Shown here in pieces: positions 1,503 to 28,117 of a DNA stretch of 32,000 nt. Under the pieces are notes generated by a model. It had not been told where the DNA came from. It worked only from the letters and a program-made list of their open reading frames with translations, and made no database searches. Position 1 is the first letter of the stretch. Every line of letters begins with the position of its first letter. The translations under genes were made by a program, and so were the position numbers. This DNA is from Neobacillus vireti (GTDB taxonomy: Bacteria > Bacillota > Bacilli > Bacillales > Cytobacillaceae), in contig NZ_JBALNB010000017.1 of NCBI RefSeq assembly GCF_036962345.1, positions 124,190-156,189 on the forward strand. Reading direction: 5' to 3'.

Positions 1503-1580
1503 TATCATTTTCATGTATGGAATAAAGAAGATGGAATTCATACACAACTATATAAACAGTGTAAGGTTAAAAAATATTAG

Positions 1581-1620
1581 AAAAAGCTGATGAAGGAATA
1601 ACCCCTCCATCAGCTTTTTC
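1581..1620. terminator. Bidirectional rho-independent terminator between convergent genes
   Basis: AAAAAGCTGATGAAGG-aataacc-CCTCCATCAGCTTTTT forms an 11-bp stem with one mismatch. An A-run lies on one side and a T-run on the other. Confidence 0.6.
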
Positions 1621-3546
1621 TTATTTTAGTAGCCTCAAACTATTCAAAATAACTAATATGGTACTACCTTCATGCCCGATGACACCTAATGGTAAATCCA
1701 CCGCTTGTAAAAAGTTTGAAGCGATCAGAAAGACGATGACACTGATGGAGAAAACGACATTTTGTTTGACAATCCGATTCATCCTTTTAGACAAGTGAAT
1801 CGCTTCGGAAATCTTCGGTAAATCGTTTTTCATCAGGATGATATCTGCTGTCTCAAGGGCCACGTCCGTTCCGCCCCCCATCGCAATTCCCACATTGGCG
1901 GTTGCAAGTGCTGGAGCATCATTAATACCGTCGCCAACCATCGCAACATTCCCAAGTCTCCCTTTTAGCTGTTTCAAATGTTCTACCTTGTTTTCCGGCA
2001 AGCATTCAGCAATGAATTCATCCACATGACTTTCACCTGAAATCACTTTCGCTGTTTTGCCGTTATCCCCCGTCAACATGATTGTATAAATGCCTTGGGC
2101 TTTTAACTGATCAATGGCAAGTATCGTTTCTTTTCGAACCCGGTCCATCAGGCCGATACATGCCACTACTTTTCCAGCCTTTTGTACAAAGACAACCGTC
2201 TTCCCCTCATCAGCCAGCCTGCTAGCAGCTTGTTCAGCAAATCGTTCAGCCGCATCTTCCCCAACAAATCCTGCCTTGCCGATTTTCCACTCTTCTTGAT
2301 CAATAGTTGCTTTCACTCCCCAGCCAGCTGCATCCTCTATACTTTCCGGGTGAAGAAGATCACCCGCTAATTTTCCCTTTGTATACTTCACAATCGCATT
2401 GGCAAGCGGATGGGTGGAGTGGCTTTCAATCGAAGCCGTAATTCGTAATATATCTTCACCATTAAGCCCCTTTTGAACGATAAAATCTGTAACCTCCGGC
2501 TTCCCCTTTGTCAACGTACCCGTTTTGTCAAAAGCAATAGCTTTCAAATGGCTTAAATTTTCTAAGTGAACTCCACCTTTAAAAAGAATCCCATGCCTGG
2601 CACCATTGGAAATCGCCGATAAGGTGGCCGGCATGATGGAAGCGACAAGGGCACATGGCGAAGCCACAACCAGTAAAACCATCGCCCGGTAAAAGGTTTC
2701 TACCCAGCTCCATCCAAGAAGATAATGGGGAAGAAACATCATCACCGCTACTACAGCAAGCACGACTTTTACGTAAGTCCCTTCAAACCTTTCGATAAAT
2801 AGCTGGGATGGTGCTTTTTCACTCTGAGCAGACTGAACTAACTCAATAATCTTTTGGAATAAGGTTTCGTTTGCAGGTCTCATGATTTCAACAGTAATCG
2901 AACCGTTTAAATTCACGGTTCCAGCAAACACCTCATCTTGATTTCCTTTCGAAACAGGTATGGATTCCCCCGTAATTGCTGCCTCATCAACGGTAGTCAT
3001 CCCTTTGACAATTTTTCCATCGGAAGGCACTCGTTCCCCTGGTTTGATCAGAATGAAATCACCAATCTTTAGTTCCGATACATGAACGCGTTCCTCCATT
3101 CCATCCCTGACGCGTAACGCCTCTTCAGGCTGAAGTTCCATTAACGACGAAATTTCTTTATGACTTTTGTTCATGGTATAGGTTTCTAGCGCTCCGCTTA
3201 AAGCAAAAATAAAAATGAGGATGGCCCCTTCAATCCAATATCCGATAATAGCCGATCCAATCGCTGCTAAAACCATTAGCATCTCAACATTAAGTTCTTT
3301 ATTCGCAATCGTTTCTTCAATACCTTCTTTTGCTTTCGCATAGCCCCCAATGACAAAAGCAAGGAGAAACAATTGAACAGACGGCACTTCAAACCCTTCC
3401 CGCTGAACGAACCATCCAAGAAAAATGAGTACTCCGCATACGATGGCTGCAATTAATTCACCATTCGCTTTTATTCTTTCCCAGAGCTTTCCTTGTGGCT
3501 GTGGCTTTTTACTGTTCAGTACTTGTACTTGCGCTTCTGTTCTCAT
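1621..3546 (-). CDS. pfeT: P1B-4-type heavy-metal (Fe2+/Co2+/Zn2+) efflux P-type ATPase, PfeT/ZosA-like
   Basis: Contains DKTGTLT (phosphorylation site), TGES, GDGINDAP, an SPC motif in the transmembrane region (VVASPCALV) and HEGSTILVILNSLRLL near the C-terminus. There is no N-terminal metal-binding domain. The track start (TTG at 3558) directly abuts the GGAGG, so I prefer ATG at 3546, 12 nt after the SD. Confidence 0.85.
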   Translation of the reverse strand: MRTEAQVQVLNSKKPQPQGKLWERIKANGELIAAIVCGVLIFLGWFVQREGFEVPSVQLFLLAFVIGGYAKAKEGIEETIANKELNVEMLMVLAAIGSAIIGYWIEGAILIFIFALSGALETYTMNKSHKEISSLMELQPEEALRVRDGMEERVHVSELKIGDFILIKPGERVPSDGKIVKGMTTVDEAAITGESIPVSKGNQDEVFAGTVNLNGSITVEIMRPANETLFQKIIELVQSAQSEKAPSQLFIERFEGTYVKVVLAVVAVMMFLPHYLLGWSWVETFYRAMVLLVVASPCALVASIMPATLSAISNGARHGILFKGGVHLENLSHLKAIAFDKTGTLTKGKPEVTDFIVQKGLNGEDILRITASIESHSTHPLANAIVKYTKGKLAGDLLHPESIEDAAGWGVKATIDQEEWKIGKAGFVGEDAAERFAEQAASRLADEGKTVVFVQKAGKVVACIGLMDRVRKETILAIDQLKAQGIYTIMLTGDNGKTAKVISGESHVDEFIAECLPENKVEHLKQLKGRLGNVAMVGDGINDAPALATANVGIAMGGGTDVALETADIILMKNDLPKISEAIHLSKRMNRIVKQNVVFSISVIVFLIASNFLQAVDLPLGVIGHEGSTILVILNSLRLLK

Positions 3547-3599
3547 ATTTTGTGTCAACCTCCATTTCCCTCAATTATTTATTAATAATATTTTTCTTT

Positions 3600-3614
3600 T
3601 AATAATTATTTTAA
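3600..3614. promoter_or_regulatory. Candidate PerR/Fur-family 7-1-7 box upstream of the ATPase gene
   Basis: TAATAATTATTTTAA matches the PerR consensus TTATAATNATTATAA at 13 of 15 positions. It lies about 50 nt upstream of the ATPase start. The region is very AT-rich, so a chance match is possible. Confidence 0.3.
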
Positions 3615-3675
3615 TAAGGATTATATTCATATTTTAAAAAGTTGTCAATCACAAATGAGAAAATAATTTACTAAT

Positions 3676-3690
3676 TGAGAATAATACTCA
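3676..3690. promoter_or_regulatory. Candidate Fur-family-like 7-1-7 inverted repeat
   Basis: TGAGAATAATACTCA is an inverted repeat with one mismatched pair. It matches the Fur box TGATAATNATTATCA at 12 of 15 positions. Confidence 0.25.
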
Positions 3691-3740
3691 TCATCAATTC
3701 AGTATTAATAATAATTTTCATTATTCTCTTATACTAATAA

Positions 3741-3755
3741 TGATAATTATTATTA
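3741..3755. promoter_or_regulatory. Candidate Fur/PerR box in the divergent pfeT-mntH intergenic region
   Basis: TGATAATTATTATTA differs from the Bacillus Fur consensus TGATAATNATTATCA at one position. Confidence 0.4.
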
Positions 3756-3954
3756 TTTATTTCACGTCTTATATCCAGAAAATAGTAATATATATTCACC
3801 TAACTCTAAAGAGTTGCTCGTGGACAAAAATTATTTACAAATACAAGAAACAGAGTTAAAATCATCTCATAAAATATTTCGTAGCTATTTATAAAGAAAA
3901 AGTTGGTCTAATGAAATTTTTTTTACTTACTACATCTTTTGGAAGGGTGATTAC

Positions 3955-5289
3955 ATGGATTCTCAGGGCTGGTTAAAACAAAGCGCGAATGTGAGTTTAG
4001 AAGAGGTAAACAATACCGTGAGTATTCCAAGTAAAGGAGGATTTTGGCGGAAACTTCTTGCATTTATTGGACCGGGATCATTGGTTGCCGTAGGGTATGT
4101 AGACCCGGGAAACTGGGCAACTTCCATCGCCGGCGGGGCACGTTTCGGTTATACGCTGTTAATTGTCATTTTACTTTCAAATTTAATTGCCATGCTCTTG
4201 CAAGCATTATCTTCAAAACTTGGGATTATTACAGGAAGAGATCTTGCCCAGGCAACGAGGGATGCAACAGGAATGAAAACAGCCTTTGTCCTTTGGATAT
4301 TAACCGAATTAGCCATTATTGCAACCGACTTAGCAGAGGTCATTGGTTCAGCCATTGCCCTAAAGTTATTATTCGGCATTCCTTTATTACTGGGGATTGC
4401 CATCACTACATTCGATGTACTGCTTCTACTCTATTTGCAAAAGAAAAGCTTTCGCATTATTGAATCCATTGTCATCGTTTTAATGGTTACCATCTTTGTT
4501 GTCTTTGCATTTGAGGTCATTTTCTCAAAACCGGAAATGGCAGCTTTATTCGGCGGGTTTGTTCCCAAAGCTGAAATTGTCACAAATCCACAAATGCTCT
4601 TTATTTCATTAGGAATTTTAGGTGCAACGGTGATGCCGCATAATTTATATTTGCATTCTTCCATCGTGCAAACCAGACAATATAAAAGGACAACAGAGGG
4701 AAAAAGAGAAGCTTTAAAATTTTCTCTTATTGATTCCACCTTTTCGTTAACCGTTGCATTTCTGATTAACTCCGCCATTTTGATTTTGGGAGCGGCCGCT
4801 TTTTATGGTACCAATTTAGATGTATCCGAAATCGAAGCAGCCTATGAATTACTTAGTCCTACGCTCGGAATAGGGATAGCAAGTACGTTATTTGCAGTGG
4901 CCTTACTTGCATCCGGTCAAAACTCAACCATTACCGGAACGATTAGCGGGCAAATTGTGATGGAAGGATTTATTAACCTGCGAATTACACCATGGCTTCG
5001 CCGCTTAATCACACGTTTATTAGCCGTCGTTCCTGCGTTTATCGTGACCTGGGTAGCTGGCGCCAAAGGAACGGGTGAATTGCTGTTATGGAGTCAAGTC
5101 ATTCTAAGTTTAGCACTTCCATTTGCTGTCATCCCTTTAGTGCTCTTTACAAGCGATAAAAAGAAAATGGGTGAATTCGCCAATAAATTACCCGTGAAAA
5201 TTTTAGCATGGGGATGTACCGGTGTAATCGTTGTATTGAATATTTTCCTCATTGTATATACCGTTATGACAGGTCAAAATTTTGGATAA
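3955..5289 (+). CDS. mntH: NRAMP-family divalent metal (Mn2+/Fe2+):H+ symporter
   Basis: The DPGNWATSIAGGARFGY motif, MPHNLYLHS and about 11 predicted TM segments are typical of bacterial MntH. SD GGAAGGGTGA lies upstream of the ATG. Confidence 0.95.
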   Translation: MDSQGWLKQSANVSLEEVNNTVSIPSKGGFWRKLLAFIGPGSLVAVGYVDPGNWATSIAGGARFGYTLLIVILLSNLIAMLLQALSSKLGIITGRDLAQATRDATGMKTAFVLWILTELAIIATDLAEVIGSAIALKLLFGIPLLLGIAITTFDVLLLLYLQKKSFRIIESIVIVLMVTIFVVFAFEVIFSKPEMAALFGGFVPKAEIVTNPQMLFISLGILGATVMPHNLYLHSSIVQTRQYKRTTEGKREALKFSLIDSTFSLTVAFLINSAILILGAAAFYGTNLDVSEIEAAYELLSPTLGIGIASTLFAVALLASGQNSTITGTISGQIVMEGFINLRITPWLRRLITRLLAVVPAFIVTWVAGAKGTGELLLWSQVILSLALPFAVIPLVLFTSDKKKMGEFANKLPVKILAWGCTGVIVVLNIFLIVYTVMTGQNFG

Positions 5290-5298
5290 AAGGGAAAA

Positions 5299-5340
5299 GC
5301 CTAATTTCTCCGTATTAAAACAGGGAAATTAGGCCTTTTT
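5299..5340 (+). terminator. Rho-independent terminator of mntH
   Basis: GCCTAATTTC...GAAATTAGGC forms a 10-bp stem followed by CTTTTT. Confidence 0.7.
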
Positions 5341-5375
5341 AGGATTAAACATAAGGATAGAGCGGGAAGCAACAT

Positions 5376-5871: not shown

Positions 5872-5975
5872 AAAATCACCCCTAGTAAATATTCAACCAT
5901 CAACCTAAGATCTCTTTGGAAGATTAATGATTCTATCAACAATTATGGCAACATCTCACAGATTTCAAACCTTTA

Positions 5976-6080
5976 GAGACCAAAGGGACCAAAGTGGGGG
6001 AGACCAAAGGGACGGTTCTGGTGGCTTTTTCCTGCAGATTTGTTTAGTAAAAAAAGCCGGGAGAACCGTCCCCAAGGTCC
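5976..6080. repeat. REP-like palindromic element, copy A
   Basis: The arms are GGGACGGTTCT (6009-6019) and AGAACCGTCCCC (6062-6073), extended by GGTGGCTTTTT / AAAAAGCC. The left end GAGACCAAAGGGA occurs twice (5976-5988 and 6000-6012). Confidence 0.8.
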
Positions 6081-6190
6081 CATGGGATCGCTGCGGCGGT
6101 CTTATTTTTTGTTATGCTAACGATGCAGGTTCAAAAAACAAGGGGTTGAAAGAATAAATGATATAATTTCTAAAAAGGAGTGCTAAAAGT

Positions 6191-6577
6191 ATGAAATTAA
6201 AAGTTTTAGATTCAACTTTTTCCGTTGTGAAAATTCCTCCAACCGAAACAATACCATTGTGGGCATTAAACTCAGATATTTTTTCTATTACGCGAACAGA
6301 TGAGGAACTTTCTATCGTGTGTCCTTCAGAATGTTTATCCATGAACGAAGTATTTAAGGATGTTGAAAACGATTGGAAGTGTATAAAAGTAGAGGGAGTT
6401 TTAGACTTTAGTTTAACTGGAATATTATCTTCATTAGCAAAGCCATTAGCCGAAAATAAAATCAGTATCTTTGCTATTTCAACCTTTAATACAGATTACC
6501 TGCTTGTTAAAAGCCATTCAATTCAAAAAGCAAAAGTCGTATTAGAGAATGAAGGTCACACTTTTAACCATATTTAA
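6191..6577 (+). CDS. ACT-domain protein (small ligand-binding fold), function unknown
   Basis: The 128-aa product ends in a pattern typical of ACT_7-type domains (VLDFSLTGILSSLAKPLAENKISIFAISTFNTDYLLV). SD AAGGAG lies upstream. Confidence 0.6.
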   Translation: MKLKVLDSTFSVVKIPPTETIPLWALNSDIFSITRTDEELSIVCPSECLSMNEVFKDVENDWKCIKVEGVLDFSLTGILSSLAKPLAENKISIFAISTFNTDYLLVKSHSIQKAKVVLENEGHTFNHI

Positions 6578-6655
6578 AAAAGTTTATTGCACTTAAGGTG
6601 CTTTGTTTAAGATTTCGGCTTTCGTATTGGCAGCCTGATAGTCCAAGAAGTTATT

Positions 6656-6692
6656 ATGAAAGTAGAAATAGGACTCGTATTTCTACTTTCAT
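6656..6692. terminator. Perfect 15-bp stem-loop downstream of the ACT gene
   Basis: The stem is ATGAAAGTAGAAATA-ggactcg-TATTTCTACTTTCAT. There is no clear U-tract, so its terminator function is uncertain. Confidence 0.45.
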
Positions 6693-6856
6693 ATGAATTA
6701 CTAATTACACCTTTTGGCATTCATACCACTACAACTGTAGAGTTTACTTAGCGTTAGATACTATAATCATTTGTACTTTTAATGAACACACTAAAGTAAT
6801 TTACCAATATATTTTTACATCTATGGCATATCAGCTTTAACATCAGGGCGCTATGT

Positions 6857-7339: not shown

Positions 7340-7384
7340 AATTGAAACCTCCTCAGCCTTTATTATTTTTTCATCAATATTTCA

Positions 7385-7651
7385 GGGGTGCCGCAGGGAC
7401 GGTTCTCATGGTTCGATTTAAGGAACATAATTGTCAATGATAAATACTGAAAACATTAATGGCTACTACATTGTTAAAAAACTTTTCTCCGAGAACCTCG
7501 AAAAGGTATAGTAAAATTGTTTCCCACATTATATAACCATGTATCATCTATATCCTAGTTTCATTTATACACATTCCTGTCACTAACCGAAGGTGAACAT
7601 CATTATATCCTAATACCATAATAAAAGGCCATCAGAACCGTCCCCACGGTC
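7385..7651. repeat. REP-like element, copy B (long-loop form) abutting the RAYT-like gene
   Basis: The left arm is GGGGTGCCGCAGGGACGGTTCTCATGGTTCG (core 7396-7415). The right arm is AAAAGGCCATCAGAACCGTCCCCACGG (core 7634-7645). The right arm ends 2-3 nt from the stop codon at 7653. Confidence 0.75.
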
Positions 7652-7652
7652 T

Positions 7653-8429
7653 TCACGCCTTAGAGATAAGTGTTCGTGAGATGCCTAAGATCCTTGATAG
7701 TTGGCGTTGTGATATGCCTTTGTTTTGTTTTGCCTTTTTAAGGATTTCATTTCTTTTGAGTTTTGGTAAACTTTTAACTTGGGCGATTTCAATTCCATCT
7801 AACAGTTTCTTAATCTTTTCCCTTGCTTCAATATCCGTTAATTTTCTTTCAGCCATATGGTCATCTAGACACTGATCCTGATTGACGCTTTCATTAAATT
7901 CTTTGAATCTTTCCCTAGCTACAATGTTTTCCTCCGAAAACTTTCCTAAAATGAATGTAGAATCCAAGAGTTCCCTGCCCTCATTACAAATTCTGTAATA
8001 ATATCGGCAGCTGCTCCACCTCCATTCATCCACCCTTTTGACGATACCTGCTTTAAGTGGATTTTGATGAATGTATCTTACTACAGTTAGTAAATACCGG
8101 AGATTTTCAACATTCTCACTCCTGAACCTGTCCTGAAAAAGATGCCCTGACGTTCCGTACTTCCCGTTATAGTACAAGGCAAAACTTACACCTATTCGTT
8201 TCATTGTGGTCGAAATATCTTCATTGCCTTCTCGTAACAACAGGTGGACATGATTACTCATCAAACACCAGCCGTAAATCTTCACGTTAGTTTGCAACTT
8301 ATATTTATGCAATAAATCGAGAAATCTTGAACAATCCTCATCATCGTGGAAGATTTCCTGTCTATTGGCACCTCTTAGCATAATATGATAAATTCCGCTT
8401 CCGCATTTCACTCTGGCTCTTCGAGGCAT
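7653..8429 (-). CDS. RAYT-like Y1 (HUH) transposase, IS200/IS605 Y1_Tnp fold with a C-terminal helix-turn-helix
   Basis: Contains the HUH motif SNHVHLLL (nt 8244-8252), the catalytic Tyr context VVRYIHQNP (Y at nt 8073-8075) and WRWSS, as in COG1943 REP-associated tyrosine transposases. The C-terminus GISQRQLSRILGISRTLISKA looks like a DnaA-C-like HTH. I prefer ATG at 8429 (SD AGGTGA 5 nt upstream) over the track GTG at 8438. Confidence 0.8.
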   Translation of the reverse strand: MPRRARVKCGSGIYHIMLRGANRQEIFHDDEDCSRFLDLLHKYKLQTNVKIYGWCLMSNHVHLLLREGNEDISTTMKRIGVSFALYYNGKYGTSGHLFQDRFRSENVENLRYLLTVVRYIHQNPLKAGIVKRVDEWRWSSCRYYYRICNEGRELLDSTFILGKFSEENIVARERFKEFNESVNQDQCLDDHMAERKLTDIEAREKIKKLLDGIEIAQVKSLPKLKRNEILKKAKQNKGISQRQLSRILGISRTLISKA

Positions 8430-9117
8430 CTTAATCACCTGAAGGAAACATCGTTCTACTCTTTTGCTCTTTTTCCCTATTTACTGTTTCTTTTAATTCC
8501 ATTCAAGCTTCTCCCTTGCATTTATTTGGATGAGTAGCAAGTTGCTTATGCTTATCTATCTTCCTTTATTTGTGCGGCCTCCATAAGAGCCACATCCGAT
8601 ATCGATTCTTCCTCATTTAAATCTAGCTAAACGGATAATCTTTATTTGCACTTGGATAATATGACCTTACTTAATTGTCATACTGCTGCTGTTTTCCAGT
8701 TCAAAGAGAATCGCCAATTAGTTTTTCAAGCGATTTTCTATTTCTCAAAAAAAATAATTGTAGGTAGATGGTTGTGAGTATTACTATCGAGTAAAGTGGT
8801 AATAGTTCGAATGATGATTTAGATGGGGGAGTAAAATAGAAGTTTGGAACAACATTATGTCACTTGTTCCAAAGCATGCTCTCGCTAAGGCTAAGACGAT
8901 TCTGAAATCAGTCGATGGCAAAAAAATAGCAGACGGGTCTCTTATAGATGGGGAAGAAAATATGTATTCGTGGTTAAAAAACACGCGTGGTAATCTTTAG
9001 TAGAATTAGTAAGGAAGAAACGATTTATATCAAACCTATCATACACCAATTTTCAAAATACTTCATTCAATTCTTCTGTGAAAATAAAAAACTCTTTGGC
9101 TAAGAGCTTCTCTCAGC

Positions 9118-9240
9118 CACAGTGTGAATTTAATTGGTCGATCTCACAAACCTTAAAATGGTTCAACCATCAATACCGACCACATTGTATGATGGCTGAT
9201 ACCACTAATAAAAGAATCATCAGAACCGTTACCGGACCTC
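9118..9240. repeat. REP-like element, copy C (degenerate, long form)
   Basis: The segment 9140-9233 aligns by eye with the interior and right arm of copy H (GATCTCACAAA...CGACCACATTGTATGATGGCTGATACCACTAATAAAAGAATCATCAGAACCGTTACC). The left arm has decayed. The right end abuts the stop codon at 9240. Confidence 0.55.
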
Positions 9241-9940: not shown

Positions 9941-10013
9941 TCAGTGGCTTCGGACGGTTCTCTTGGTTCCTAATAAGGTTAGTTTGGACCACAAGAACCG
10001 TCCCCTTGGTTTC
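9941..10013. repeat. REP-like element, copy D (short form)
   Basis: The sequence is GGACGGTTCTCTTGGTTCC...GGACCACAAGAACCGTCCCCTTGGTTTC (cores 9952-9960 and 9994-10005). It differs from copy E at 5 of 64 positions by eye and overlaps the stop codon at 10012-10014. Its left flank TCAGTGGCTTCG (9941-9952) is the inverted repeat of CGAAGCCACTGA (9855-9866). Confidence 0.8.
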
Positions 10014-11967
10014 AAATTTCTTTTACAATCCTATATCCACCCATCTGCATGGTTTGATAAAGCTCCAGTACGACATCACTGTCATATTTTTGATAGTCTT
10101 CGCCTGTTATTTCTTCGATTTTCTTCAGGTCATCATAGGAGACTAAACAAGCATGAAGCCTTTTGTCAGGGTCTTTCGTTTTCCCATCAACAATTTCTTC
10201 AAGAATGTCCCACCCTCTAAGAAAATGGAAAGCATTCCAACGGTGATGTTCAGCGGCCCCTAGTAACGTAAGGTGTTCCTGCGCTGCTGCGATGTACTCT
10301 TCTGGTGTTAAGGCTTTATGACCGCTTTTCTCTATTTCACCTGCAGGAACTGCCTTTAACCCCATAAGCATAAGCTTTACTTCAGCATGATTGAGCTGAT
10401 TCCGATTGGATTCTTTTAAGAAGGTTGAAAGTTGGTCCCACGTTCCCTGTTTCTTTTTCGCCCCCTCTTCCTTGCTCTTTCGATAAGCTTCATGAATATT
10501 TTTTGCGCGATCTTCCAATTGGTCATTGACAACATAATCATAAGTCAATATTTCCTCATAGTTTCCAAAAAGATAAAGCTTGTTAAACTTCTCTGTGTTT
10601 GTGTGCAGCCAGTGACTGATTTGGGCTTTTTCACTTAATTTTAAGTAAATCGGGAGGTGAGGTATCGTTTTGCCAAGCTGAATGCCTGCTTTAAGATCGT
10701 CAAAATCATCTTTTAAACAAACAAAAATATGCGTGTAGGCTGCTTCTGCAGCATGGACATAATCATCAATCGAATCGGTTTCAATATCAATCGTATGAAA
10801 CGTTAAGTCTGCGACCCTTTTACTTTTTGGATAGTTCTCATACCACTCTTTTTTTACTTTCTCGGCATGCTTATCCAAAATAGTTATTTTGAGTTGTGCA
10901 GAATTTATATAATGTGCCCGTTCTATTGCCTGAAGTGCCAAATGTTGACCGGTTTGGCCAAATCCAATAAATAATAAATGCAATGCTTCTCCGTTCGGAT
11001 TCCGAAGTCGTTCTTCATATCCCTTATGAAGCGGGTATTCATTAAAGAGTTTTTCTGCCACTACCTTTTGTAAATTAAATGGTTTAACAGGAAGATAGTC
11101 CGCCCGGTTCGTTTTTAGGGAGAGATCTGTTTCGATTTCTTCAAACAGCTCATAGGATTGGTGATAAGCTAGATGTACGATCACCTGCTTTAAACTCAGT
11201 GATACACCAGTTTCCTTGACAAATTCATTTAATGCGAGTATTTCATTTAAATTCTTTGAATCTTCTTCATTAAAAATAATAAAATACTCGGCACTAGATA
11301 ATTTGCATTTTTTATATAAAGAGGTACTTCCTTGTTTTCCAATCAATAAAATAACTCCTAACTCACGCATATACGTCATTTGTGATTCAGAGATTTCTTC
11401 TACGATCAAAACAACCTTTTTCTGTTGTTTGCGCAGGTTCTCTATCAACACTTTGCTTTTATGATGATAACCAGAAATAACGATATGATTTCCAAAGATC
11501 CGATATAAAACTAGTTTGAAAGATTGATTGAAAAACAAATAAATTAATGAAAATAAAGTTGAAATTGTGTAGGCAGCAGCCGTCCAGCGCGCAATCTCTA
11601 TGGCAAGCGGGTAGGTTGTGAATTTACTGGCTGATTTTGAGAAAACAGGGTCTACATCCAGCAGGAACAGACGAAACGTTGAATACAATGCATTTGTAAT
11701 TGAATAATCTTCGATTGCGTGAAATTTAAATCCGTATACTCCTGAAGTGACCGCAACAATAAATAATAATAACTGTATACGGTTATTTTTAAGAATCTGA
11801 AAATAAAAAATAAACCAATATCCACATAGGACTATCGTAACCATTGTTGCTAAGAAGAGATTGGGCGTCCTTGTTTCCAGATGAAATCCCCATAAAAGAG
11901 CAACAATTATTAGAGTAAATATGCTATAGAAAAGGACAGAGGCATGCGTATGAATGATTTTTTTCAC
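10012..11967 (-). CDS. Membrane protein with two Rossmann/RCK (TrkA-N-like) domains and a C-terminal RyR-like region
   Basis: About 5 N-terminal TM helices (aa 1-165) are followed by two nucleotide-binding-like segments (HIVISGYHHKS..., LLFIGFGQTGQHLA with GxGxxG). The C-terminus (AEHHRWNAFHFLRGW...HACLVSYDDL...YQKYD) resembles RyR repeats. The GTG start lies 6 nt after the upstream stop codon. Confidence 0.7.
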   Translation of the reverse strand: MKKIIHTHASVLFYSIFTLIIVALLWGFHLETRTPNLFLATMVTIVLCGYWFIFYFQILKNNRIQLLLFIVAVTSGVYGFKFHAIEDYSITNALYSTFRLFLLDVDPVFSKSASKFTTYPLAIEIARWTAAAYTISTLFSLIYLFFNQSFKLVLYRIFGNHIVISGYHHKSKVLIENLRKQQKKVVLIVEEISESQMTYMRELGVILLIGKQGSTSLYKKCKLSSAEYFIIFNEEDSKNLNEILALNEFVKETGVSLSLKQVIVHLAYHQSYELFEEIETDLSLKTNRADYLPVKPFNLQKVVAEKLFNEYPLHKGYEERLRNPNGEALHLLFIGFGQTGQHLALQAIERAHYINSAQLKITILDKHAEKVKKEWYENYPKSKRVADLTFHTIDIETDSIDDYVHAAEAAYTHIFVCLKDDFDDLKAGIQLGKTIPHLPIYLKLSEKAQISHWLHTNTEKFNKLYLFGNYEEILTYDYVVNDQLEDRAKNIHEAYRKSKEEGAKKKQGTWDQLSTFLKESNRNQLNHAEVKLMLMGLKAVPAGEIEKSGHKALTPEEYIAAAQEHLTLLGAAEHHRWNAFHFLRGWDILEEIVDGKTKDPDKRLHACLVSYDDLKKIEEITGEDYQKYDSDVVLELYQTMQMGGYRIVKEI

Positions 11968-12285: not shown

Positions 12286-12401
12286 TGTGCCAAAGGTGTG
12301 CCAAAGGGACGGTTCTCATGGTTCCGAATAAGGTTCGTTTGGACCACTAGAACCGTCCCCTTGGTTTCCCCATGGTTTCCCCATGGTTTCCCCCTGGTTT
12401 C
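12286..12401. repeat. REP-like element, copy E with stuttered termini
   Basis: The core is GGGACGGTTCTCATGGTTCC...GGACCACTAGAACCGTCCCC (12306-12360). The left end TGTGCCAAAGG occurs as 2 tandem copies (12286-12307). The right end TCCCCWTGGTT occurs as 4 tandem copies (12356-12399). The element ends at the stop codon of the next gene (12402). Confidence 0.85.
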
Positions 12402-12854: not shown

Positions 12855-13538
12855 ATGTACTTTTTCAACTATTATTTCCGTTTTATAAATATTCTGGTGT
12901 TAACCTTTGTTGTAGCATTTCCCATTTTCGGGTTTGCGCTCTTCCTATTTTTTGAGCCGCAGACAGAATATCAGCTATATTTTGAAGGAAAATTCCTGGC
13001 TTTCTTTACGGTTTTTATCATTTGCTTATTTATCAGCCGGCTTCTTAATAATTTACGGCATGAAAAAGCACCTAGTAACATCATACATATTCTTTGGATT
13101 GGTCTATTAACCATGCTTCTAATTTTTTCAAGTCTGTTCGGCTTGATGATGATGAAGCAATATTTCACAGCGTTCCAAGATGACCTTCCCGTTCAAACGA
13201 AAAGTACGTTGGCACAGGTCATTCCCATCGAAGAGGAATTATTCGGACCAATCGACAACAGTTTAGTTGGTCAGATTCCATACAATGCACGCGGTAACAT
13301 GCACCGATATGGGATTCAACTCATTGATACCAATCATCAGGTCTACCAAACCGCCTACTTTGATTCATTAGATGACTATACCTTTACACTTAAAAAATTA
13401 AGAGGCGAGGTCGGCAATACTATCATCATTGACCTGCTGCCAAAATCAAAGCGAATTGTTTCCATTGAGGTTCCAACTGAATCTGGGCCATTCTATGAAA
13501 ATGAATTTCTATCAAAAGGAGAAGAAGGGAGCTTTTAG
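12855..13538 (+). CDS. Membrane protein (3 TM plus C-terminal soluble domain), unknown function
   Basis: I prefer ATG at 12855 (SD GGGGTGGA) over the track start at 12825. The N-terminus has hydrophobic helices and the C-terminal half is soluble. Confidence 0.6.
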   Translation: MYFFNYYFRFINILVLTFVVAFPIFGFALFLFFEPQTEYQLYFEGKFLAFFTVFIICLFISRLLNNLRHEKAPSNIIHILWIGLLTMLLIFSSLFGLMMMKQYFTAFQDDLPVQTKSTLAQVIPIEEELFGPIDNSLVGQIPYNARGNMHRYGIQLIDTNHQVYQTAYFDSLDDYTFTLKKLRGEVGNTIIIDLLPKSKRIVSIEVPTESGPFYENEFLSKGEEGSF

Positions 13539-16500
13539 CTGGCCCCTTCTTTTTTTTGCGGAAAGTGGTATTCCTTCCTTTTCATCGTATTTCCTTCAAT
13601 TGTCTGTAATTTGTCCCCATTCCAGTACAAACCAATCATCGGTTCATTGGTATAAAAAAGCGCTGTTTCTTTTCCTTCTGTAAGCATGAAAACCTTTAGC
13701 CAGTTGCCCAGCCCCACAGCTAGATAGTTCCCCGTTTCATCCCAAGCCAGCAGGGAATTCGCACCCAATACTTGGCCAAACCGCTGAATCCTTTGTAAGT
13801 TTGCTTTCTCACTTTCTTGCTTGGCCATGTCTTCTAAACTAGCTATCTTCTCATGCGGCAGCAACATAATATCATGTAAATAGTCAGCAAGCGCATGTGA
13901 TACACCTGTTGGGAAGCAATCAAGCTGATGGACAACTTGCTTCAATTGGACCTGAACAACAATGAATTCAAACCGCATCCCTAAAAAAGCAATTTGTTTG
14001 CTATCATGGCTCCATTCATGGTTTTCCACCAATTGGTTTAAGCTTCCCTTGGCGATTAATTTTTCGTTTATTTTTCCCTTTTTTGTACCCGCAATCTGAT
14101 AAACAAAAAATTGATTGCCAATGCAAATAGACAAGTATTGACCATCCGGACTCCACTTCATAAGAATTTGCCCCTCACTTTCAGGGCCAGCATCCAGCAT
14201 CCAGCTCTTCCCATCATTTGTATTCAGATCGATCAAATCTATCAACCCGTCAGCGTGTACAATACAAATCACTTGTCCGTTCGTTGACCACCGTGCCGTA
14301 ATGATTTCACTACTTGATGTAAACGTCTTTTTTACATAACCGCTCCGAATATTCATGATCCACACTTGATCTTTTGTCCCGAACGCTGCCAATTTTTCAT
14401 CCGCAGATAGGTGACAAAACCGGATGTTCCCTGATTTAAACGGCTGATATTGAATGATAGAGTCCTCTTTGAGATTATGAATCTGCATGTATTGACCTAG
14501 ATGCCCTGTCGCTAAATAAGATTTTGATGAAGACAGCGAACTAGAAATGATCAACGAATCGATAAATTGGGTATTAACTTGTTTGGCAGCAAAGATGTCT
14601 TCTACCTGTTTGGATAAGGCTTTTCTCCGTGGTATGAGTACATCAAAGGCTCCAGCCAATCTGTTCAGCCAGTCTGCATAATGGGCAAACACCCATAATG
14701 GATGGGTATAGGCCCAATCAACCTGATCACCATTGCTGCTTTTGGCATCCAGCTGGCGGAAATCCCATATCGTTACCTTTCCGTCAACGGTAATCGTAGC
14801 AAGGAGCCCGTCCTTAAAATCGATTGTCAGCAAGGTTTCGGAAGCTGGCAAGGCAAGCCGCAGCTTGCCATGTCCAGATTTTCCCTCCCAAACAAAGATT
14901 TCGCCTTTATCTAAAACTGAAAGAATTTTCGTTTGATAAAAATAATGCCGGCCGATTTCCAAACCAATGGTACTATCTTCCCTTACGCCGCGTTCAATAT
15001 TCCAAACCATGATTCCAGTGCTTTCACTTGTCCATAAGAAGCCCTCATCGTCATAGTACATGTAATGATAGAGAGAGGTATCTGGCATGAGTTGATATTT
15101 CGAGCGCAGCACTTTCTTTTCGGTCTGGTTATGAACATCCCAAATCACCATTTTTCGATAATCTGAACTAAACTTTGCTTGATACCAGATCGCGAGTTCA
15201 TCCCCATCACGTCTCCAGGCTAATTGAAGAACGGCCTGATCGATGGGCTTACACGTAACCTTCTCTTGGGATGGCAGATGGATGATTTCAACTATCCCTT
15301 TCTCTGTGCCAACGGCTAGGTCTTCACCATTCGGCCTCCAAGCTAGATTTAAGATGGTCTCTTCTACCTGTGTCTCGTAAACACACGTAAAAGTAGATGA
15401 TTCCAAGATACTCAGTTTATGGTTACTGGCAAGCGCTAGGAGATCCTCCTCCTCCGAAAAAACAACGTGTTTAATCGTACCAATTCCCGGATAATGCTGA
15501 TTGATTTCTTCGCCTGTATAGATATCCCAAATTTTAATAACGTCGTCATGAATGGTTAATAATTGCCTGCCATTTGGATGCCATTTACAAAAAGATAAAT
15601 CAATATCTGGCAATTGAAAGGTATGTTGATAATAATCTAAATCAAGATCCTGACCTTGATTGGAAAGAAGATATTGGATACTTTTCTCTTCATACCAGCG
15701 TTTTGCCTCACGAAATACCTTTGAACCTTCAGGCATTCTGATCGCAAATGGTAAAATTTGCTCTGGGAACTGCACAAGTAAACTATGGTGAATTTGACAA
15801 AAACGTGAAAAATCATCTGCATACTGTGTGGAATGCCTGGAACCTTCCTGCAAGTTTTTCAGATTTTCATAGTCTCGCAGTAAATCATGAGAAAGTTTTG
15901 TTTGTATCTTTGACTGGAGGAAGTTGAAATCTGTTAACAGGCTTTCCATTTGTCGATCATATCCTGACTGATACAATTGGAGTGGAAGTTCGAATGCCTT
16001 GCGATGATTCGGAATCTGACTTTCTTCTCCGTCCAAAAAATTCTGCTTATCTTGAAAATAGTCGGCGATTTTTTCATGAAAATCTTGCTTTAAATAGGTC
16101 TCTTTAATTTTCCGGCCAATTTGACGGTGGTAAAAGCTATAGATATAGGAACCATTCTCATTTCTCTCCATCAAATAGGGCTCAAGATCATTAAACAAGC
16201 GCGCCCAAATGACTACGGGCAAGTTTTTCCCGAGATACTCATGCTTAGCCTTACTATAAAAATCTTCCATTACATCACTGTTTTCCGATAACAATGCAAG
16301 TAACTCAGCCTCTTCCAAGCCGTTCCTTGAGGCTGCCAAAAGGCCGAACACATGGTTGATTAAGACAGATCCATGGTTCGATGGATGGGACAATCGCTCA
16401 AAAAACTGCTCTAATATTCCATCAATGCTAGGGAGAAGAGGTCGCTTCTCTTGAAAGGAGGTCCATAATTTCACCTCTTCAAATGCAAGCTTTAAATATA

Positions 16501-24920: not shown

Positions 24921-24966
24921 ACATAAAATAAAAGGCATGAGTCCGGTTCAATACCGAATTCATGCC
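24921..24966 (-). terminator. Rho-independent terminator of the 101-aa membrane protein gene
   Basis: GGCATGAGTCCGGT-tcaat-ACCGAATTCATGCC forms the stem with two mismatches. On the minus strand it is followed by TTTTATTTTAT. Confidence 0.55.
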
Positions 24967-25011
24967 CAAGAAGCTGCCTAAATTTCGAAAAACCGAGGAG
25001 TGACAGGCATC

Positions 25012-25317
25012 TCACAAGCTCATATACCCAAGCATTTCAGCAAAGGGCAAAATAGAAAGGAAGAAAAATAACAAAAATAGACTTAGGCCAATTAAAAATG
25101 TCCTCTTATTCATGCGGTGTCTGTTGAATAAAATAACGGCAATCCAAATAGGAAACGCGATGACTATATTCAACACACTGACCCATATACTGATCCCAAC
25201 AAAGTAGATATTGATATCATGTTCGCTCCGCCCTCCGTTAACCATAAAATGGAGGACCATCATTACACTAAGAAACAACAGCAGGATTAAATGATAAGCA
25301 AGCCAGGCTTTTTTCAT
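25012..25317 (-). CDS. Small membrane protein (3 TM), unknown function
   Basis: The product is a hydrophobic 101 aa. GAGGT lies 5-6 nt upstream and a terminator lies downstream. Confidence 0.65.
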   Translation of the reverse strand: MKKAWLAYHLILLLFLSVMMVLHFMVNGGRSEHDINIYFVGISIWVSVLNIVIAFPIWIAVILFNRHRMNKRTFLIGLSLFLLFFFLSILPFAEMLGYMSL

Positions 25318-25405
25318 GATTACCTCATCATAATAATTATTTTATTACCTCTTACCTTACATTAAACTAATTTAACGTATTTATGGGAATAATTTCACCA
25401 TTGAG

Positions 25406-25500
25406 AAAACCGGAGGGAAAACCGGAGGGACGGTTCTCATGGTTAGATTTTGGGTTACCATTTCCTACTTGAAAGGCCAACAGAACCGTCCCCATGGTCC
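25406..25500. repeat. REP-like element, copy G with a duplicated left terminus
   Basis: AAAACCGGAGGG occurs as 2 perfect tandem copies (25406-25429) running into GGGACGGTTCTCATGGTT (from 25427). The right arm is CAACAGAACCGTCCCCATGGTCC (core 25482-25493). Confidence 0.85.
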
Positions 25501-25511
25501 TTCTCAAGACG

Positions 25512-25535
25512 AAAAAAATACCGCCATTGCGGTAT
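25512..25535 (-). terminator. Rho-independent terminator of the small ORF
   Basis: ATACCGC-catt-GCGGTAT forms the stem. On the minus strand it is followed by TTTTTTT. Confidence 0.6.
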
Positions 25536-25578
25536 TAGCTTTTCTAATTTCAAAATTGTTAGTGGAGCTATTGTTAAA

Positions 25579-25743
25579 CTAATCGACACTATTATTCTTT
25601 TTTATTTCGTCGCGTATTTCCTTTAGATATTCATTTCTTTGTTTCATTAACTTTAAGATAGTAATTACAACATAAATAGCAAACACGAGAATTCCTAAAT
25701 ATAATAAGATAGGAATAAGTCCTAAAAAAGCCATCATTTCCAT
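25579..25743 (-). CDS. Small single-pass membrane protein (54 aa), absent from the ORF track
   Basis: My own translation is MEMMAFLGLIPILLYLGILVFAIYVVITILKLMKQRNEYLKEIRDEIKKNNSVD. GGAGG lies 8 nt upstream of the ATG at 25743 and a terminator follows the stop codon. Confidence 0.5.
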   Translation of the reverse strand: MEMMAFLGLIPILLYLGILVFAIYVVITILKLMKQRNEYLKEIRDEIKKNNSVD

Positions 25744-25868
25744 ATGTTAATCCTCCAAAACTATGTTTCAACTTATATTACCATATTATTCCATGAATTC
25801 CTCGTTAATTTAAATTTATATAAAACAACAAAGTTAACGAAAACAGTCTGTCGTTAAAAGAATGACCC

Positions 25869-26000
25869 GGGGTCGGTTCTCATAATTCGATTATGGTTAG
25901 GTATCTCACAAATCTCAAAATCGTTCAACGATCACAACGACACATTGTGTGAGGGCTGACACCACCAATTAAAAAGCCATTAGAACCGTCCCCATGGTCC
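25869..26000. repeat. REP-like element, copy H (long form)
   Basis: The left arm is GGGGTCGGTTCTCAT. The right arm is AAAAAGCCATTAGAACCGTCCCCATGGTCC (core 25982-25993). The element ends 3 nt from the stop codon at 26003. Confidence 0.8.
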
Positions 26001-26002
26001 TG

Positions 26003-26801: not shown

Positions 26802-26870
26802 GTTGGTTCCTCCTAGGAAAAAAATATCCACACAAATTGATATATATTCCCGTAAAGTGCTCTTATGCCA

Positions 26871-26891
26871 GGGGGACGGTTCTCCTGGTTC
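26871..26891. repeat. REP-like element, copy I (left arm only)
   Basis: The sequence is GGGGGACGGTTCTCCTGGTTC. It is followed by an unrelated long hairpin instead of a right arm. Confidence 0.6.
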
Positions 26892-26893
26892 AG

Positions 26894-26954
26894 AAAAAGG
26901 TGCCTGTCACCGGATGTGTCCTTTCGTCAACACATCGGTGACAGGCACCTTTTT
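26894..26954. terminator. Long bidirectional terminator-like hairpin
   Basis: AAAAAGGTGCCTGTCACCGGATGTG...CACATCGGTGACAGGCACCTTTTT forms a stem of about 23 bp with one bulge. An A-run and a T-run flank it. Confidence 0.65.
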
Positions 26955-27902: not shown

Positions 27903-28039
27903 TAATACACCCCCGTACATACCTCAATTCAAGAAATTTGAAACTACCCTACCAAAAAAACTTAATGAACACGCTACATCCCTTTCTAAATATTAACATA
28001 TATATCCAGTAAACTTAAAAAGTTTTGTTTCAGAATCTG

Positions 28040-28117
28040 GGGGTGCCATAGGGACGGTTCTCATGGTTCGATTATGGGTTAGTATCACAAAAAACCATGA
28101 GAACCGTCCCCCTGGCC
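28040..28117. repeat. REP-like element, copy J (short form, best palindrome)
   Basis: GGGACGGTTCTCATGGTT (28051-28068) pairs perfectly with AACCATGAGAACCGTCCC (28094-28111). The left flank GGGGTGCCATA resembles that of copy B. Confidence 0.85.

Follow-up and report, generated by a model that had tools for sequence, protein, structure and literature searches.

The DNA analysed here, a 32-kb stretch of the Neobacillus vireti genome hereafter called the window, carries on its minus strand an ORF at 7653–8429 that begins with ATG and encodes 258 amino acids; together with the stop this makes 259 codons, the figure that the first-pass annotation had given as the length of the product. An alternative GTG start at 8438 would yield a protein of 261 aa. 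That annotation had described a RAYT-like Y1 transposase with three motifs, all of which can be read directly in the sequence: the HUH motif HVH at residues 60–62 (8244–8252), the catalytic tyrosine motif RYIHQNP at residues 118–124 (8058–8078), which includes Y119, and WRWSS at residues 136–140 (8010–8024), each encoded on the minus strand. In an alignment of 21 homologues (A1) the catalytic residues are all invariant, among them H60, H62 and the tyrosine motif, and so are W136, W138, S139 and S140. The Y---NP pattern present in the protein is a signature of class 2 TnpA_Y1 proteins (PMC6006769). The HMM check that had been proposed against Pfam Y1_Tnp (PF01797) returned E=5.7e-16, and the protein exceeds the cut-off of the NCBIfam RAYT model NF047646 REP_Tyr_transpos (86 bits, cut-off 80), whereas the IS200 model NF033573 gives 15.9 bits against a cut-off of 55. 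The best match in the PDB by sequence is E. coli TnpA_REP (4ER8, E=3.7e-8), which is again the best match in a Foldseek fold search (TM 0.70, rmsd 2.3 Å); further Foldseek matches, 2XMA, 2VJV and 2A6O, have the IS200/IS605 TnpA fold. Moreover, the gene is under purifying selection (dN/dS 0.08–0.31), its homologues are 62–83% identical across genera, and homologues in many Bacillaceae genera keep the length of 258 aa. Since this is the conserved full length, the idea that the repeat at the 3′ end had cut the gene short was rejected. Judged by its sequence, the gene is an intact RAYT-family Y1 transposase.

The protein has a C-terminal extension of ~110 aa that is conserved among homologues. An HTH had been assigned to this region earlier. 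The helical nature of the C-terminus stood up, with short helices at residues 223–234, 241–248 and 252–257 in the AlphaFold2 model, and so did a likeness to HTH families below the Pfam thresholds, but no HTH model scored above its gathering threshold: the window protein remains below it with HTH_19, HTH_3 and HTH_23, and HTH_23 matches 8 of 15 clade members, likewise below the gathering score. A PDB profile search of the C-terminal region gave weak matches (E≥0.03). No match to Bac_DnaA_C was found in this domain by Pfam on 15 members, by PDB profile search or by Foldseek with the full model. The sub-threshold matches and the predicted helices weakly support an HTH, which would correspond to an HTH-like segment at residues ~228–257 (7659–7748, minus strand).

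Each flanking REP of the gene is itself a doublet, intact on the 3′ side (doublet B, 7384–7656) and decayed on the 5′ side (9118–9240). The right arm of doublet B (7622–7656, minus strand) has an exact core at 7634–7644 and scores 27.5 bits (E=3e-7) with R1, a covariance model built solely from RAYT-flanking arms of other genomes. Its stem ends at ~7650–7651, so that the spacing of 2–3 nt from the stop codon (7653–7655) reported in the first-pass annotation is confirmed. This arm has the gene's own orientation, opposite to that of the canonical downstream arm of homologous loci; it is the outer, left arm (7384–7418, plus strand, core 7396–7406, R1 26.7 bits) that is oriented as the canonical downstream arm. 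The long-form interior of the doublet (7419–7621, 203 nt) is conserved in the compared N. vireti sequence and includes, at 7486–7504 of the minus strand, a hairpin resembling a terminator. On the 5′ side, a clear REP had been reported as missing. This holds for intact arms, none of which was detected in 8430–9117 (model R1 without a match at E<5), but the upstream side is not empty, and the decayed long-form copy suspected to begin at 9118 is real. Its partner arm at 9118–9140 (plus strand) was recognised by reading the sequence, and its REP at 9212–9240 (minus strand), with the core AGAACCGTTAC at 9222–9232 carrying 2 mismatches, by aligning upstream regions; the interior at 9141–9172 is 88% identical to 25903–25934, in the interior of the copy at 25870–26000 (doublet G). 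The decayed copy (~9118–9240) occupies the position equivalent to that of the intact upstream REPs in the Neobacillus loci L001 and L002, and both N. niacini and N. jeddahensis have intact upstream repeats where the window has the decayed one. Downstream of the upstream REP lies a conserved promoter-like patch, TGGTGTATGATAGGTTTGATA (9011–9072, minus strand), found at the equivalent position in L001 and L002, which may act as a promoter. From this patch to the RAYT RBS runs a long leader (8430–9010, minus strand) that is poorly conserved in the alignment and matches no Rfam family.

The repeat that flanks the gene is abundant in the window. Its core occurs 18 times with at most one mismatch, a 21-nt pattern, CCANNGGGACGGTTCTNNTGG, is matched 15 times versus 0 expected by chance, and model R1 recovers 16 copies at E<1e-3. 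All 18 arms are extragenic, i.e. outside ORFs of at least 110 aa. Inverted doublets are formed by seven arm pairs with a core-to-core spacing of 43–238 nt, in which the 3′ stem halves always point inward, the same geometry as that of the RAYT gene's own flanks. Besides doublet B, core searches and model R1 delineated doublet A (5997–6084; arms 5997–6031 on the plus and 6050–6084 on the minus strand) and the long-form doublet G (25858–26004, left core variant GGGTCGGTTCT); R1 also identified doublets D (12294–12371), F (25415–25504) and I (28039–28122), the long-form doublet J (29092–29220) and single REPs at 24858–24892 (minus strand, 33.1 bits) and 26861–26895 (plus strand). Doublet C (9944–10016) consists of a variant left arm, CGGACGGTTCT, and a right arm at 9982–10016 (minus strand). 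Doublets C and D, at different loci, are 94% identical over 62 nt. Folding energies of the doublets range from −13.7 to −26.8 kcal/mol (z −3.1 to −6.3), with C at the weak end (−13.7, z −3.1), D at −19.9 (z −4.9) and I at the strong end (−26.8, z −6.3), whereas folding of lone arms of the window Neobacillus is weak (−1.7 to −4.4 kcal/mol) and no stronger than that of shuffled sequences. Doublets A and I are placed between divergent genes. The density of the repeat has parallels in other Bacillaceae loci, which contain 16–43 cores per 16–21 kb. A scan of the whole window with Rfam at gathering thresholds returned no family, and the repeat is therefore not a curated RNA. Some arms are preceded by stutters, partial copies of the 5′ part of the hairpin that end after loop nucleotides 2–4 and are polymorphic between near-identical strains. 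The one 5′ of the left arm of doublet A (5973–6008, plus strand) is a partial tandem copy comprising the 5′ stem and the start of the loop, and 24 nt of it are missing from the compared N. vireti sequence; the other, 5′ of the right arm of doublet D (12356–12399, minus strand), is an array of three 11-nt units (TCCCCATGGTT on the plus strand), and there the compared sequence is shorter by 17 nt.

An arm lies within 10 nt of the stop codon in 3 of the ~25 genes of the window, and because the repeat is so dense (18 in 32 kb), arm–stop adjacency within the window is not significant alone. Since adjacency in the window proves little, the case for a connection between hairpin and RAYT rests on comparison with 79 related loci; the bracketing counts cover 71 homologous loci across Bacillota that have enough flank. 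A core in the plus orientation is present within 150 nt upstream of the gene in 33 of the 71 loci (2.0% under random placement) and a core in the minus orientation within 100 nt downstream in 39 (1.0%), and in 26 loci inverted copies of the same 11-nt core occupy both flanks (0.07%). The bracketing cores are located 50–60 nt before the ATG and 8–30 nt after the stop codon, and the canonical upstream arm leads into TTGACA-N17-TGnTATAAT-RBS-ATG. Ten loci contain no cores in up to 20 kb apart from the two that bracket the gene. Many RAYT-bearing Clostridia have the two flanking copies and no others, so the presence of a RAYT alone does not produce a repeat population.

The hairpin consists of a species-specific stem of 5–8 bp and an invariant 11-nt loop, GGGACGGTTCT. 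Among 77 aligned arms, nine loop positions are invariant, and the columns of the 5′ flank contain neither GTAG nor any other consensus. The stem covaries over 6–8 bp: 84% of cells are paired, compared with 57% in shuffles and 35–50% in slid controls, and compensatory changes occur at all eight stem pairs. Most of the covariation signal comes from genera other than Neobacillus. Furthermore, the loop varies together with the enzyme. RAYTs whose flanking loop is GGGACAGGTyy, GGGACGGGGTT or GGGACGGTTCC cluster accordingly on the protein tree, and the dispersed copies in a genome show the loop variant that belongs to the RAYT residing there; when hairpins more than 300 nt from the gene were compared with the flank type, the counts were A→A 160, A→B 1, B→B 17 and B→A 0. 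The link between enzyme and repeat, which the first-pass annotation had inferred from one adjacency, is thus supported by bracketing, by the tracking of RAYT clades by loop variants and by the match of dispersed loops to the resident enzyme, and these comparisons strongly support the GGGACGGTTCT hairpin as the cognate partner of the RAYT across Bacillota.

The repeats might instead be host regulatory or structural elements, such as terminators, mRNA stabilisers or protein-binding sites, whose maintenance and spread do not depend on the RAYT, with the gene simply lying in intergenic DNA rich in repeats. Functions of this kind are established for E. coli REPs. The density of the repeat and the three genes with an arm close to the stop codon would agree with a host role. 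T-runs (GGCTTTTT) come after several of the arms, and many arms are located immediately downstream of genes, which also fits. However, a host role leaves unexplained why the gene is bracketed by exactly the GGGACGGTTCT hairpin in the 10 loci without another copy in 20 kb, and why loop variants track RAYT clades; a terminator, moreover, would make no sense between divergent genes, as at doublets A and I. A host role could exist alongside RAYT-dependent spread and is no substitute for it, and we regard spread independent of the enzyme as highly improbable.

As to mobility, no insertion or excision polymorphism of REPs was found in the ~13 kb common to the window and the compared N. vireti sequence (97% identity); the two differ by copy-number changes of the stutters and by two unrelated larger indels. 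Mobility of the REPs, if any, would be slow. There is one copy of the RAYT gene in the window, and its synteny, examined as a check for vertical inheritance, holds for N. vireti only and not for other Neobacillus species. Several genomes carry more than one unit: three of the related loci (L043, L046 and L061) belong to one Syntrophomonadaceae MAG, L064 (Sporomusa) has more core pairs with the same 868-nt spacing within 10 kb, and L031 contains two units.

These observations bear on whether the REP–RAYT–REP unit is still an autonomous selfish IS (a TIRtron, IS200-like), with the doublets as ordinary short-lived MITEs descended from it, rather than a domesticated single-copy RAYT that maintains a long-lived REPIN population. 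TnpA proteins of the IS200/IS605 family (IS608, ISDra2) have the same catalytic fold and recognise subterminal hairpins on single-stranded DNA. The genomes with multiple units and the lack of synteny between Neobacillus species other than N. vireti speak for a selfish element, as does the rating of Group 1 as the most IS-like RAYT group by Bertels 2017 (PMC5581495). Several features point the other way. The flanking hairpins are inverted and not co-oriented as in IS200/IS605, the protein carries the RAYT signatures Y---NP and WRWSS and falls far below the cut-off of the IS200 model, and no close homologues were found among 72,556 plasmids and 50,697 phage records. Strong purifying selection with 62–83% identity across genera likewise argues against such an element. 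In the window itself, the upstream terminal hairpin is decayed and 580–800 nt of unrelated leader precede the gene, so that the whole unit can hardly move. A selfish IS is, in our estimate, unlikely.

Somewhat less likely still is a protein that no longer transposes and acts as a sequence-specific DNA-binding regulator or nuclease. Its HTH would contact the hairpins in the service of the host, for example in processing of the replication fork or of chromosome structure, and the repeats would spread by recombination or slippage. The conserved HTH extension and the overlap between hairpin and promoter in canonical loci would suit a regulator, and targeting to the replication fork by a DnaA-like domain has been speculated upon by Quentin 2018 (PMC6006769). 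The lack of insertion polymorphism relative to the compared N. vireti sequence is also in line with this, and the sole recent changes in the repeats are in stutter copy number, which slippage could explain. By contrast, the invariance of the HUH motif, the tyrosine and every core residue, combined with purifying selection, argues for retained catalysis. Furthermore, near-identical doublets at unrelated loci (C and D, 94%) need a copying mechanism, and the geometry of the doublets is that of the gene's own flanks.

Among known enzymes, the RAYT protein best fits a class that goes under three names: TIRYT/TIRtron (Di Nocera et al. 2013, PMC3733652) is the TnpA_Y1 subclass 2.1 of Quentin et al. 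2018 (PMC6006769), and subclass 2.1 is RAYT Group 1 of Bertels et al. 2017 (PMC5581495). As in this class, whose C-terminal HTH is of the HTH_23, HTH_28 or Bac_DnaA_C-like type, the protein is a RAYT-like Y1 enzyme that exceeds E. coli TnpA_REP in length and carries a C-terminal extension, here putatively of HTH type, its distribution includes Clostridia, and the gene lies between inverted repeats with a GGGGWSAS-type motif, to which the window type GGGGACGG is a near match (7/8 positions) and GGGGACAG of sister Bacillota clades a full one (8/8). A homologue on a Pseudomonas plasmid, 38.6% identical over residues 1–167 (E. coli TnpA_REP, 24%), carries GGGGACAG as well and is flanked by AATAAA-GGGGACAGA-TTTATT hairpins. 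In the literature the flanks of TIRYT/Group 1 genes are treated as terminal inverted repeats; REP-like hairpins are not reported for subclass 2.1 genes (PMC6006769), and no REPIN association is reported for Group 1 (PMC5581495). REPIN ties are reported to be limited to Group 2 and 3 RAYTs (bioRxiv 10.1101/2021.07.10.451892), and the RAYT assays published so far all deal with Groups 2 and 3 (PMC8266576). Full-text literature searches with the core sequence returned unrelated primer or eukaryotic matches only, searches for RAYT or REPIN in Firmicutes or Bacillus were uninformative, and Bacillota names were not found in the supplement of Quentin 2018. In contrast to the published picture of TIRYT/Group 1, the flank described here forms a hairpin with covariation in the stem and an 11-nt loop that does not vary; in Bacillaceae this hairpin is amplified to about one arm per 2 kb and arranged in inverted doublets.

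Such an arrangement recalls systems outside Group 1. The gene between inverted hairpin copies, with the hairpin also dispersed in extragenic DNA, resembles the E. coli TnpA_REP/REPtron and the Pseudomonas Group 2–3 RAYT–REPIN systems, reportedly described by Nunvar 2010, Ton-Hoang 2012, Messing 2012 (4ER8) and Bertels & Rainey 2011. Further features in common with them are the HUH/Y1 fold, for which 4ER8 is the best match, inverted doublets that fold into long hairpins, and a cognate repeat for each RAYT clade. The window doublets have the REPIN layout of two inverted REPs separated by a short spacer and folding into one long hairpin. Compared with E. coli TnpA_REP, the protein has the additional C-terminal, putatively HTH-type region, and the host belongs to the phylum Bacillota. 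The hairpins differ as well. Classical GTAG REPs have a GTAG/GTGG tetranucleotide 0–2 nt 5′ of the hairpin, a stem of 7–20 bp and a loop of 2–5 nt, whereas the hairpin described here lacks the tetranucleotide at its foot and has a stem of 5–8 bp and a loop of 11 nt; moreover, its loop is invariant and its stem variable, whereas in Group 2–3 REPs it is the loop that varies. A variable stem with an invariant loop is architecturally analogous to Rep-type HUH origins (the nonanucleotide of geminiviruses and circoviruses, rolling-circle plasmids), which are served by a different enzyme family, Rep rather than a Y1 transposase. The core contains GACG, and CGTC-tagged REPs were considered and rejected: they have 8–9 bp stems, 4–5 nt loops and the tag at the foot, and they are not transposase-associated.

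We consider it probable, from the sequence comparisons, that the locus encodes an intact, Bacillota-wide RAYT whose cognate GGGACGGTTCT hairpin is moved or copied in trans in the form of doublets. The ancestral order would have been REP(+), promoter, RAYT, REP(−), each hairpin having its 3′ half toward the gene. Where the gene was lost from between its arms, inverted, REPIN-like doublets would have arisen, which became dispersed in the extragenic DNA of Bacillaceae. The enzyme is predicted to bind the folded hairpin when the DNA is single-stranded, for which the replication fork is the most likely place, and to recognise the conserved loop and not a GTAG foot as in E. coli. Cleavage would proceed via a 5′-phosphotyrosine link to Y119, with a metal ion held by H60 and H62, and would be followed by strand rejoining, so that REP doublets may be copied or moved in trans by the RAYT. 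Since the −35 box of the RAYT promoter lies partly within the canonical upstream hairpin, the gene is probably also autoregulated by hairpin binding, perhaps mediated by the HTH.

A broader proposal is more tentative. It is possible that Group 1/subclass 2.1/TIRYT RAYTs run a phylum-wide REP system in Bacillota whose specificity lies in an invariant GGGGAC-type hairpin loop and not in a GTAG foot, that it sustains REPINs numbering in the thousands in Bacillaceae, and that the stutters are footprints of the enzyme nicking the 5′ boundary of the loop, comparable to nicking at Rep origins. The locus belongs to a known type of system for which descriptions from Gram-positive bacteria are scarce. 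REP/RAYT biology has so far been worked out almost wholly in Proteobacteria, and the window locus and its 79 relatives show that a RAYT clade of Gram-positive bacteria has a hairpin that is clearly its cognate, with a loop invariant across the phylum. If the proposed explanation is correct, this clade would provide a genetically tractable Gram-positive model for RAYT function, with a different recognition logic, based on the loop versus the foot, and the 11-nt loop would be a simple handle for annotating thousands of Bacillaceae intergenic hairpins. Located near stop codons and promoters, these hairpins will affect predictions of terminators, sRNAs and promoters.

The window (G+C 39%) originates from a close Neobacillus relative of N. 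vireti: its top protein match is 97% identical, and N. vireti contig JBALND010000108 is collinear with ~13 kb of it at 97% DNA identity. The gene for the REP-associated tyrosine transposase (RAYT) is an ORF at 7653-8429 on the minus strand, with an ATG start and a product of 258 aa. All three motifs that the first-pass annotation had read in this protein are present (HVH at residues 60-62, RYIHQNP at 118-124, WRWSS at 136-140), and a profile search bears out its assignment to the Y1 transposases (Pfam Y1_Tnp, E=5.7e-16) and to the RAYT family (NCBIfam equivalog NF047646 ‘REP-associated tyrosine transposase’, 86 bits, cut-off 80); the IS200 model reached 15.9 bits against a cut-off of 55. E. 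coli TnpA_REP (4ER8) is the sole PDB match of a profile of 21 homologues (E=3.7e-8) and also the closest structure to the AlphaFold2 model (pLDDT 83.7; TM 0.70, rmsd 2.3 Å), followed by the ISDra2 and IS608 transposases. The enzyme is an intact HUH/Y1 protein under selection, with dN/dS of 0.31 against N. vireti, 0.10 against N. niacini and 0.08 against N. jeddahensis. The length of 258 aa is kept in homologues (62-83% identity) from Neobacillus, Metabacillus, Oceanobacillus, Virgibacillus, Aquibacillus, Gracilibacillus and Evansella, and thus the gene is not truncated by the repeat adjoining its stop codon. The C-terminal HTH proposed earlier is a plausible but weak candidate: generic HTH families matched only below threshold, and the helices of the AlphaFold2 model reach the last residue. 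The gene call is not new, because PGAP already names close homologues ‘REP-associated tyrosine transposase’.

The 11-nt hairpin loop of the repeat (core), GGGACGGTTCT, occurs in 18 copies in the window at up to one mismatch, nine per strand, and the 21-nt pattern CCANNGGGACGGTTCTNNTGG has 15 matches compared with 0 in shuffles. Every arm, i.e. single hairpin repeat (REP), in the window is extragenic with respect to ORFs of 110 aa or longer. Seven inverted doublets account for 14 of the arms, all with the 3' hairpin halves facing inward and with core-to-core distances of 43-238 nt. As previously noted, only 2-3 nt separate the end of one arm (7622-7656, partner 7384-7418) from the RAYT stop codon; arms also lie within 10 nt of the stop codons of two further genes, and gene-repeat adjacency inside the window alone is not significant. 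DNA folding is weak for single arms of this species (-1.7 to -4.4 kcal/mol) and strong for doublets (-13.7 to -26.8 kcal/mol, z -3.1 to -6.3). The minimum-energy DNA fold of the stop-adjacent arm 7622-7656 (minus strand) pairs ACCGT with the loop's ACGGT around a GGGG tetraloop and not in the consensus stem of the family, which suggests that Neobacillus arms may depend on doublet pairing. A BIME-like cluster at 24236-26002 carries five arms in 1.8 kb, interleaved with two small minus-strand ORFs (25012-25317 and 25579-25743) for predicted membrane proteins. An Rfam scan of the whole window matched no family.

Across Bacillota, the hairpin is structurally constrained and brackets the RAYT gene. 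A homologue scan with one genome per species yielded 79 loci (protein identity 42-76%) from Bacillaceae, Clostridia, Negativicutes, Syntrophomonadaceae, Desulfotomaculia and others, and the exact 11-mer of the window is found beside homologous RAYT genes. Of the 71 loci with sufficient flank, a ‘+’-oriented core lies no more than 150 nt upstream in 33 (usually 50-60 nt ahead of the ATG) and a ‘-’-oriented core no more than 100 nt downstream in 39 (usually 8-30 nt past the stop), compared with 2.0% and 1.0%, respectively, of random placements in the same loci; both cores are present in 26 of the 71, against 0.07%. Ten loci contain no cores in up to 20 kb except the bracketing pair, and core density reaches 16-43 per 16-21 kb in Neobacillus, Mesobacillus and Halobacillus loci. 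The stems of the flanking hairpins vary by species yet stay complementary (TAATCAAG/CTTGATTA, GACTCACG/CTTGAGTC, ATATCAGG/CCTGATAT), and the loop they enclose is invariant. Over 77 arms, 84% of stem cells are paired (57% in shuffles, 35-50% with slid partners), and double changes occur in 8/8 stem pairs with a covariation score of 0.71 against 0.21 in shuffles, the two arms of a locus being non-independent. Even single stem pairs vary among four to six Watson-Crick types from locus to locus. Moreover, a covariance model trained on foreign arms only recovered 16 window copies at E<1e-3.

The canonical order of a locus is REP(+), TTGACA, N17, TGnTATAAT, RBS, ATG, gene and REP(-), with TTGACA overlapping the 3' stem. 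The geometry of the dispersed doublets is that of the REP-RAYT-REP unit minus the gene, and these doublets correspond to the REPIN model. Each gene flank is in turn a doublet in Neobacillus and several other Bacillaceae, where a ‘+’ arm precedes a ‘-’ arm past the stop. Upstream of the gene, the order in N. niacini and N. jeddahensis is an intact REP, a conserved promoter-like patch, TGGTGTATGATAGGTTTGATA, a poorly conserved leader of ~300-500 nt and the RBS. The leader is ~300-600 nt in Neobacillus (~580 nt in the window, 8430-9010, minus strand; 4700-5200 and 9700-10000 in L001 and L002, RAYT loci of other Neobacillus genomes) and matched no Rfam family; in Clostridia, the promoter lies ~30 nt from the ATG. 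The first-pass annotation had described only a decayed long-form copy on this side. In agreement, the covariance model found nothing arm-like in 8430-9117, and the decayed copy is real: 9141-9172 matches the interior of doublet 25870-26000 at 88%, and a core with two mismatches follows at 9222-9232. It is precisely to the intact REP of N. niacini and N. jeddahensis that this copy aligns, so that the window retains the ancestral layout with its upstream hairpin eroded. Some genomes carry several REP-RAYT-REP units (Sporomusa acidovorans locus L064, 15161-19835; L031, 16200-17081; L043, L046 and L061 of one MAG), and their core pairs recur at a common spacing of ~868-881 nt, which suggests that the complete unit is still amplifying in these lineages, in the manner of an insertion sequence. 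Directly past the RAYT stop of Bacillus massilionigeriensis (L010, 10799-11010), five co-oriented variant cores, GGGACGGTTCG, recur with an exact 50-nt period, as a tandem array and not an inverted doublet.

Enzyme clade and loop type co-vary as cognates. Where the exact core is missing, the hairpins beside the homologue have the related loops GGGACAGGTyy, GGGACGGGGTT or GGGACGGTTCC, and loop types form coherent clusters on the RAYT protein tree. The check suggested earlier, whether RAYT type correlates with repeat subfamily, came out positive: hairpins dispersed >300 nt from the gene share the loop type of the resident flanks at 160:1 for type A and 17:0 for type B.

Among the 397 exact-core REPs of the window and loci, 82 carry a stutter, i.e. 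partial tandem copies of the 5' stem and the first loop nucleotides, 1-4, directly 5' of the hairpin, as in GTTCCACGGGA GTTCCACGG GTTCCACG followed by GGGACGGTTCT. When the 3' side is scored in mirror image, the figure is 15/397. The partial copy stops after loop nucleotides 2-4 in 56/73 cases, with a period of mostly 9-13 nt. For two arrays (5973-6008 and 12356-12399), N. vireti has another copy number, and these two plus a 6-nt indel in the decayed REP are the only indels of at least 4 nt from N. vireti in REP-containing aligned stretches. Other stutters occur at L001, L002, L004, L017, L023, L024, L026, L048, L054, L063 and L081 (1325-1360), and a like one adjoins a Pseudomonas homologue. 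The stutter could be a footprint of the enzyme nicking the 5' loop edge, or of replication slippage, which the G-runs flanking the 5' stem on both sides could promote. Larger differences from N. vireti include a 722-nt segment (6082-6803; ORF 6191-6577, 128 aa), absent there, whose left junction is the exact outer end of the right arm of the doublet at 5997-6084, and a 3.8-kb segment (1569-5368; ORFs 1621-3558, minus strand, and 3955-5289, plus strand), replaced there by ~98 nt, with no REP at its junctions. The window also encodes (13535-18082, minus strand) a 1515-aa STAND/NACHT NTPase that resembles an Avs/antiphage-type or signalling STAND protein; Pfam assigns DUF4062, AAA_16, an APAF1_C-like region and WD40-type beta-propellers to its N. 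vireti orthologue.

The locus belongs to the already known RAYT/TIRYT-repeat systems. RAYT-like genes whose flanking ‘terminal inverted repeats’ have GGGGWSAS in common were reported by Di Nocera et al. (2013) as TIRYTs/TIRtrons, in a paper whose main text names no Firmicutes (PMC3733652). Quentin et al. (2018) equated TIRYTs with their subclass 2.1, long proteins with a C-terminal HTH_23/HTH_28/Bac_DnaA_C-like domain, to which they mapped 291/292 of the Group 1 RAYTs in Bertels et al. (2017; PMC5581495), and their REP search, which required GTAG/GTGG and a 2-5 nt loop, found no REP-like hairpins in this subclass (PMC6006769). According to Bertels and colleagues, REPIN association is limited to Groups 2 and 3 (bioRxiv 10.1101/2021.07.10.451892). 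Judged by published class features, the window protein appears to fit TIRYT/subclass 2.1/Group 1: it has a C-terminal extension, its clade is also found in Clostridia, and its loop GGGGACGG agrees with GGGGWSAS at 7/8 positions (GGGGACAG of sister clades at 8/8). As a fourth point of fit, a Pseudomonas plasmid protein 38.6% identical to it over residues 1-167 is flanked by AATAAA-GGGGACAGA-TTTATT hairpins, whereas E. coli TnpA_REP is only 24% identical. In the open full-text literature, we found no prior description of the ‘TIR’ as an invariant-loop hairpin, of hairpin conservation across Bacillota, of loop/enzyme-clade co-variation or of very high doublet density in Bacillaceae.

Bracketing (26/71 loci against 0.07% at random) and loop/clade co-variation support the RAYT-repeat link proposed in the first-pass annotation, and on these sequence patterns RAYT and REP are very probably cognate partners; the mechanistic details are far less certain. 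By analogy with TnpA_REP and IS608/ISDra2, the enzyme would bind the folded hairpin on single-stranded DNA, cleave via Y119 while H60/H62 hold a metal ion, and join strands, whereby REP doublets would be copied or moved in trans. The underlying biochemistry comes from E. coli, Stenotrophomonas and Marinomonas TnpA_REP and from IS608/ISDra2 (PMC3479197, PMC8266576); unlike in the TnpA_REP enzymes so studied, the putative specificity element of the window-type system is an invariant loop, and the hairpin has no GTAG foot. Furthermore, the upstream hairpin overlaps the -35 box, a hint that RAYT may autoregulate its promoter, perhaps through the HTH. More widely, it is credible that Group 1-type RAYTs run REP/REPIN systems with loop-based specificity.
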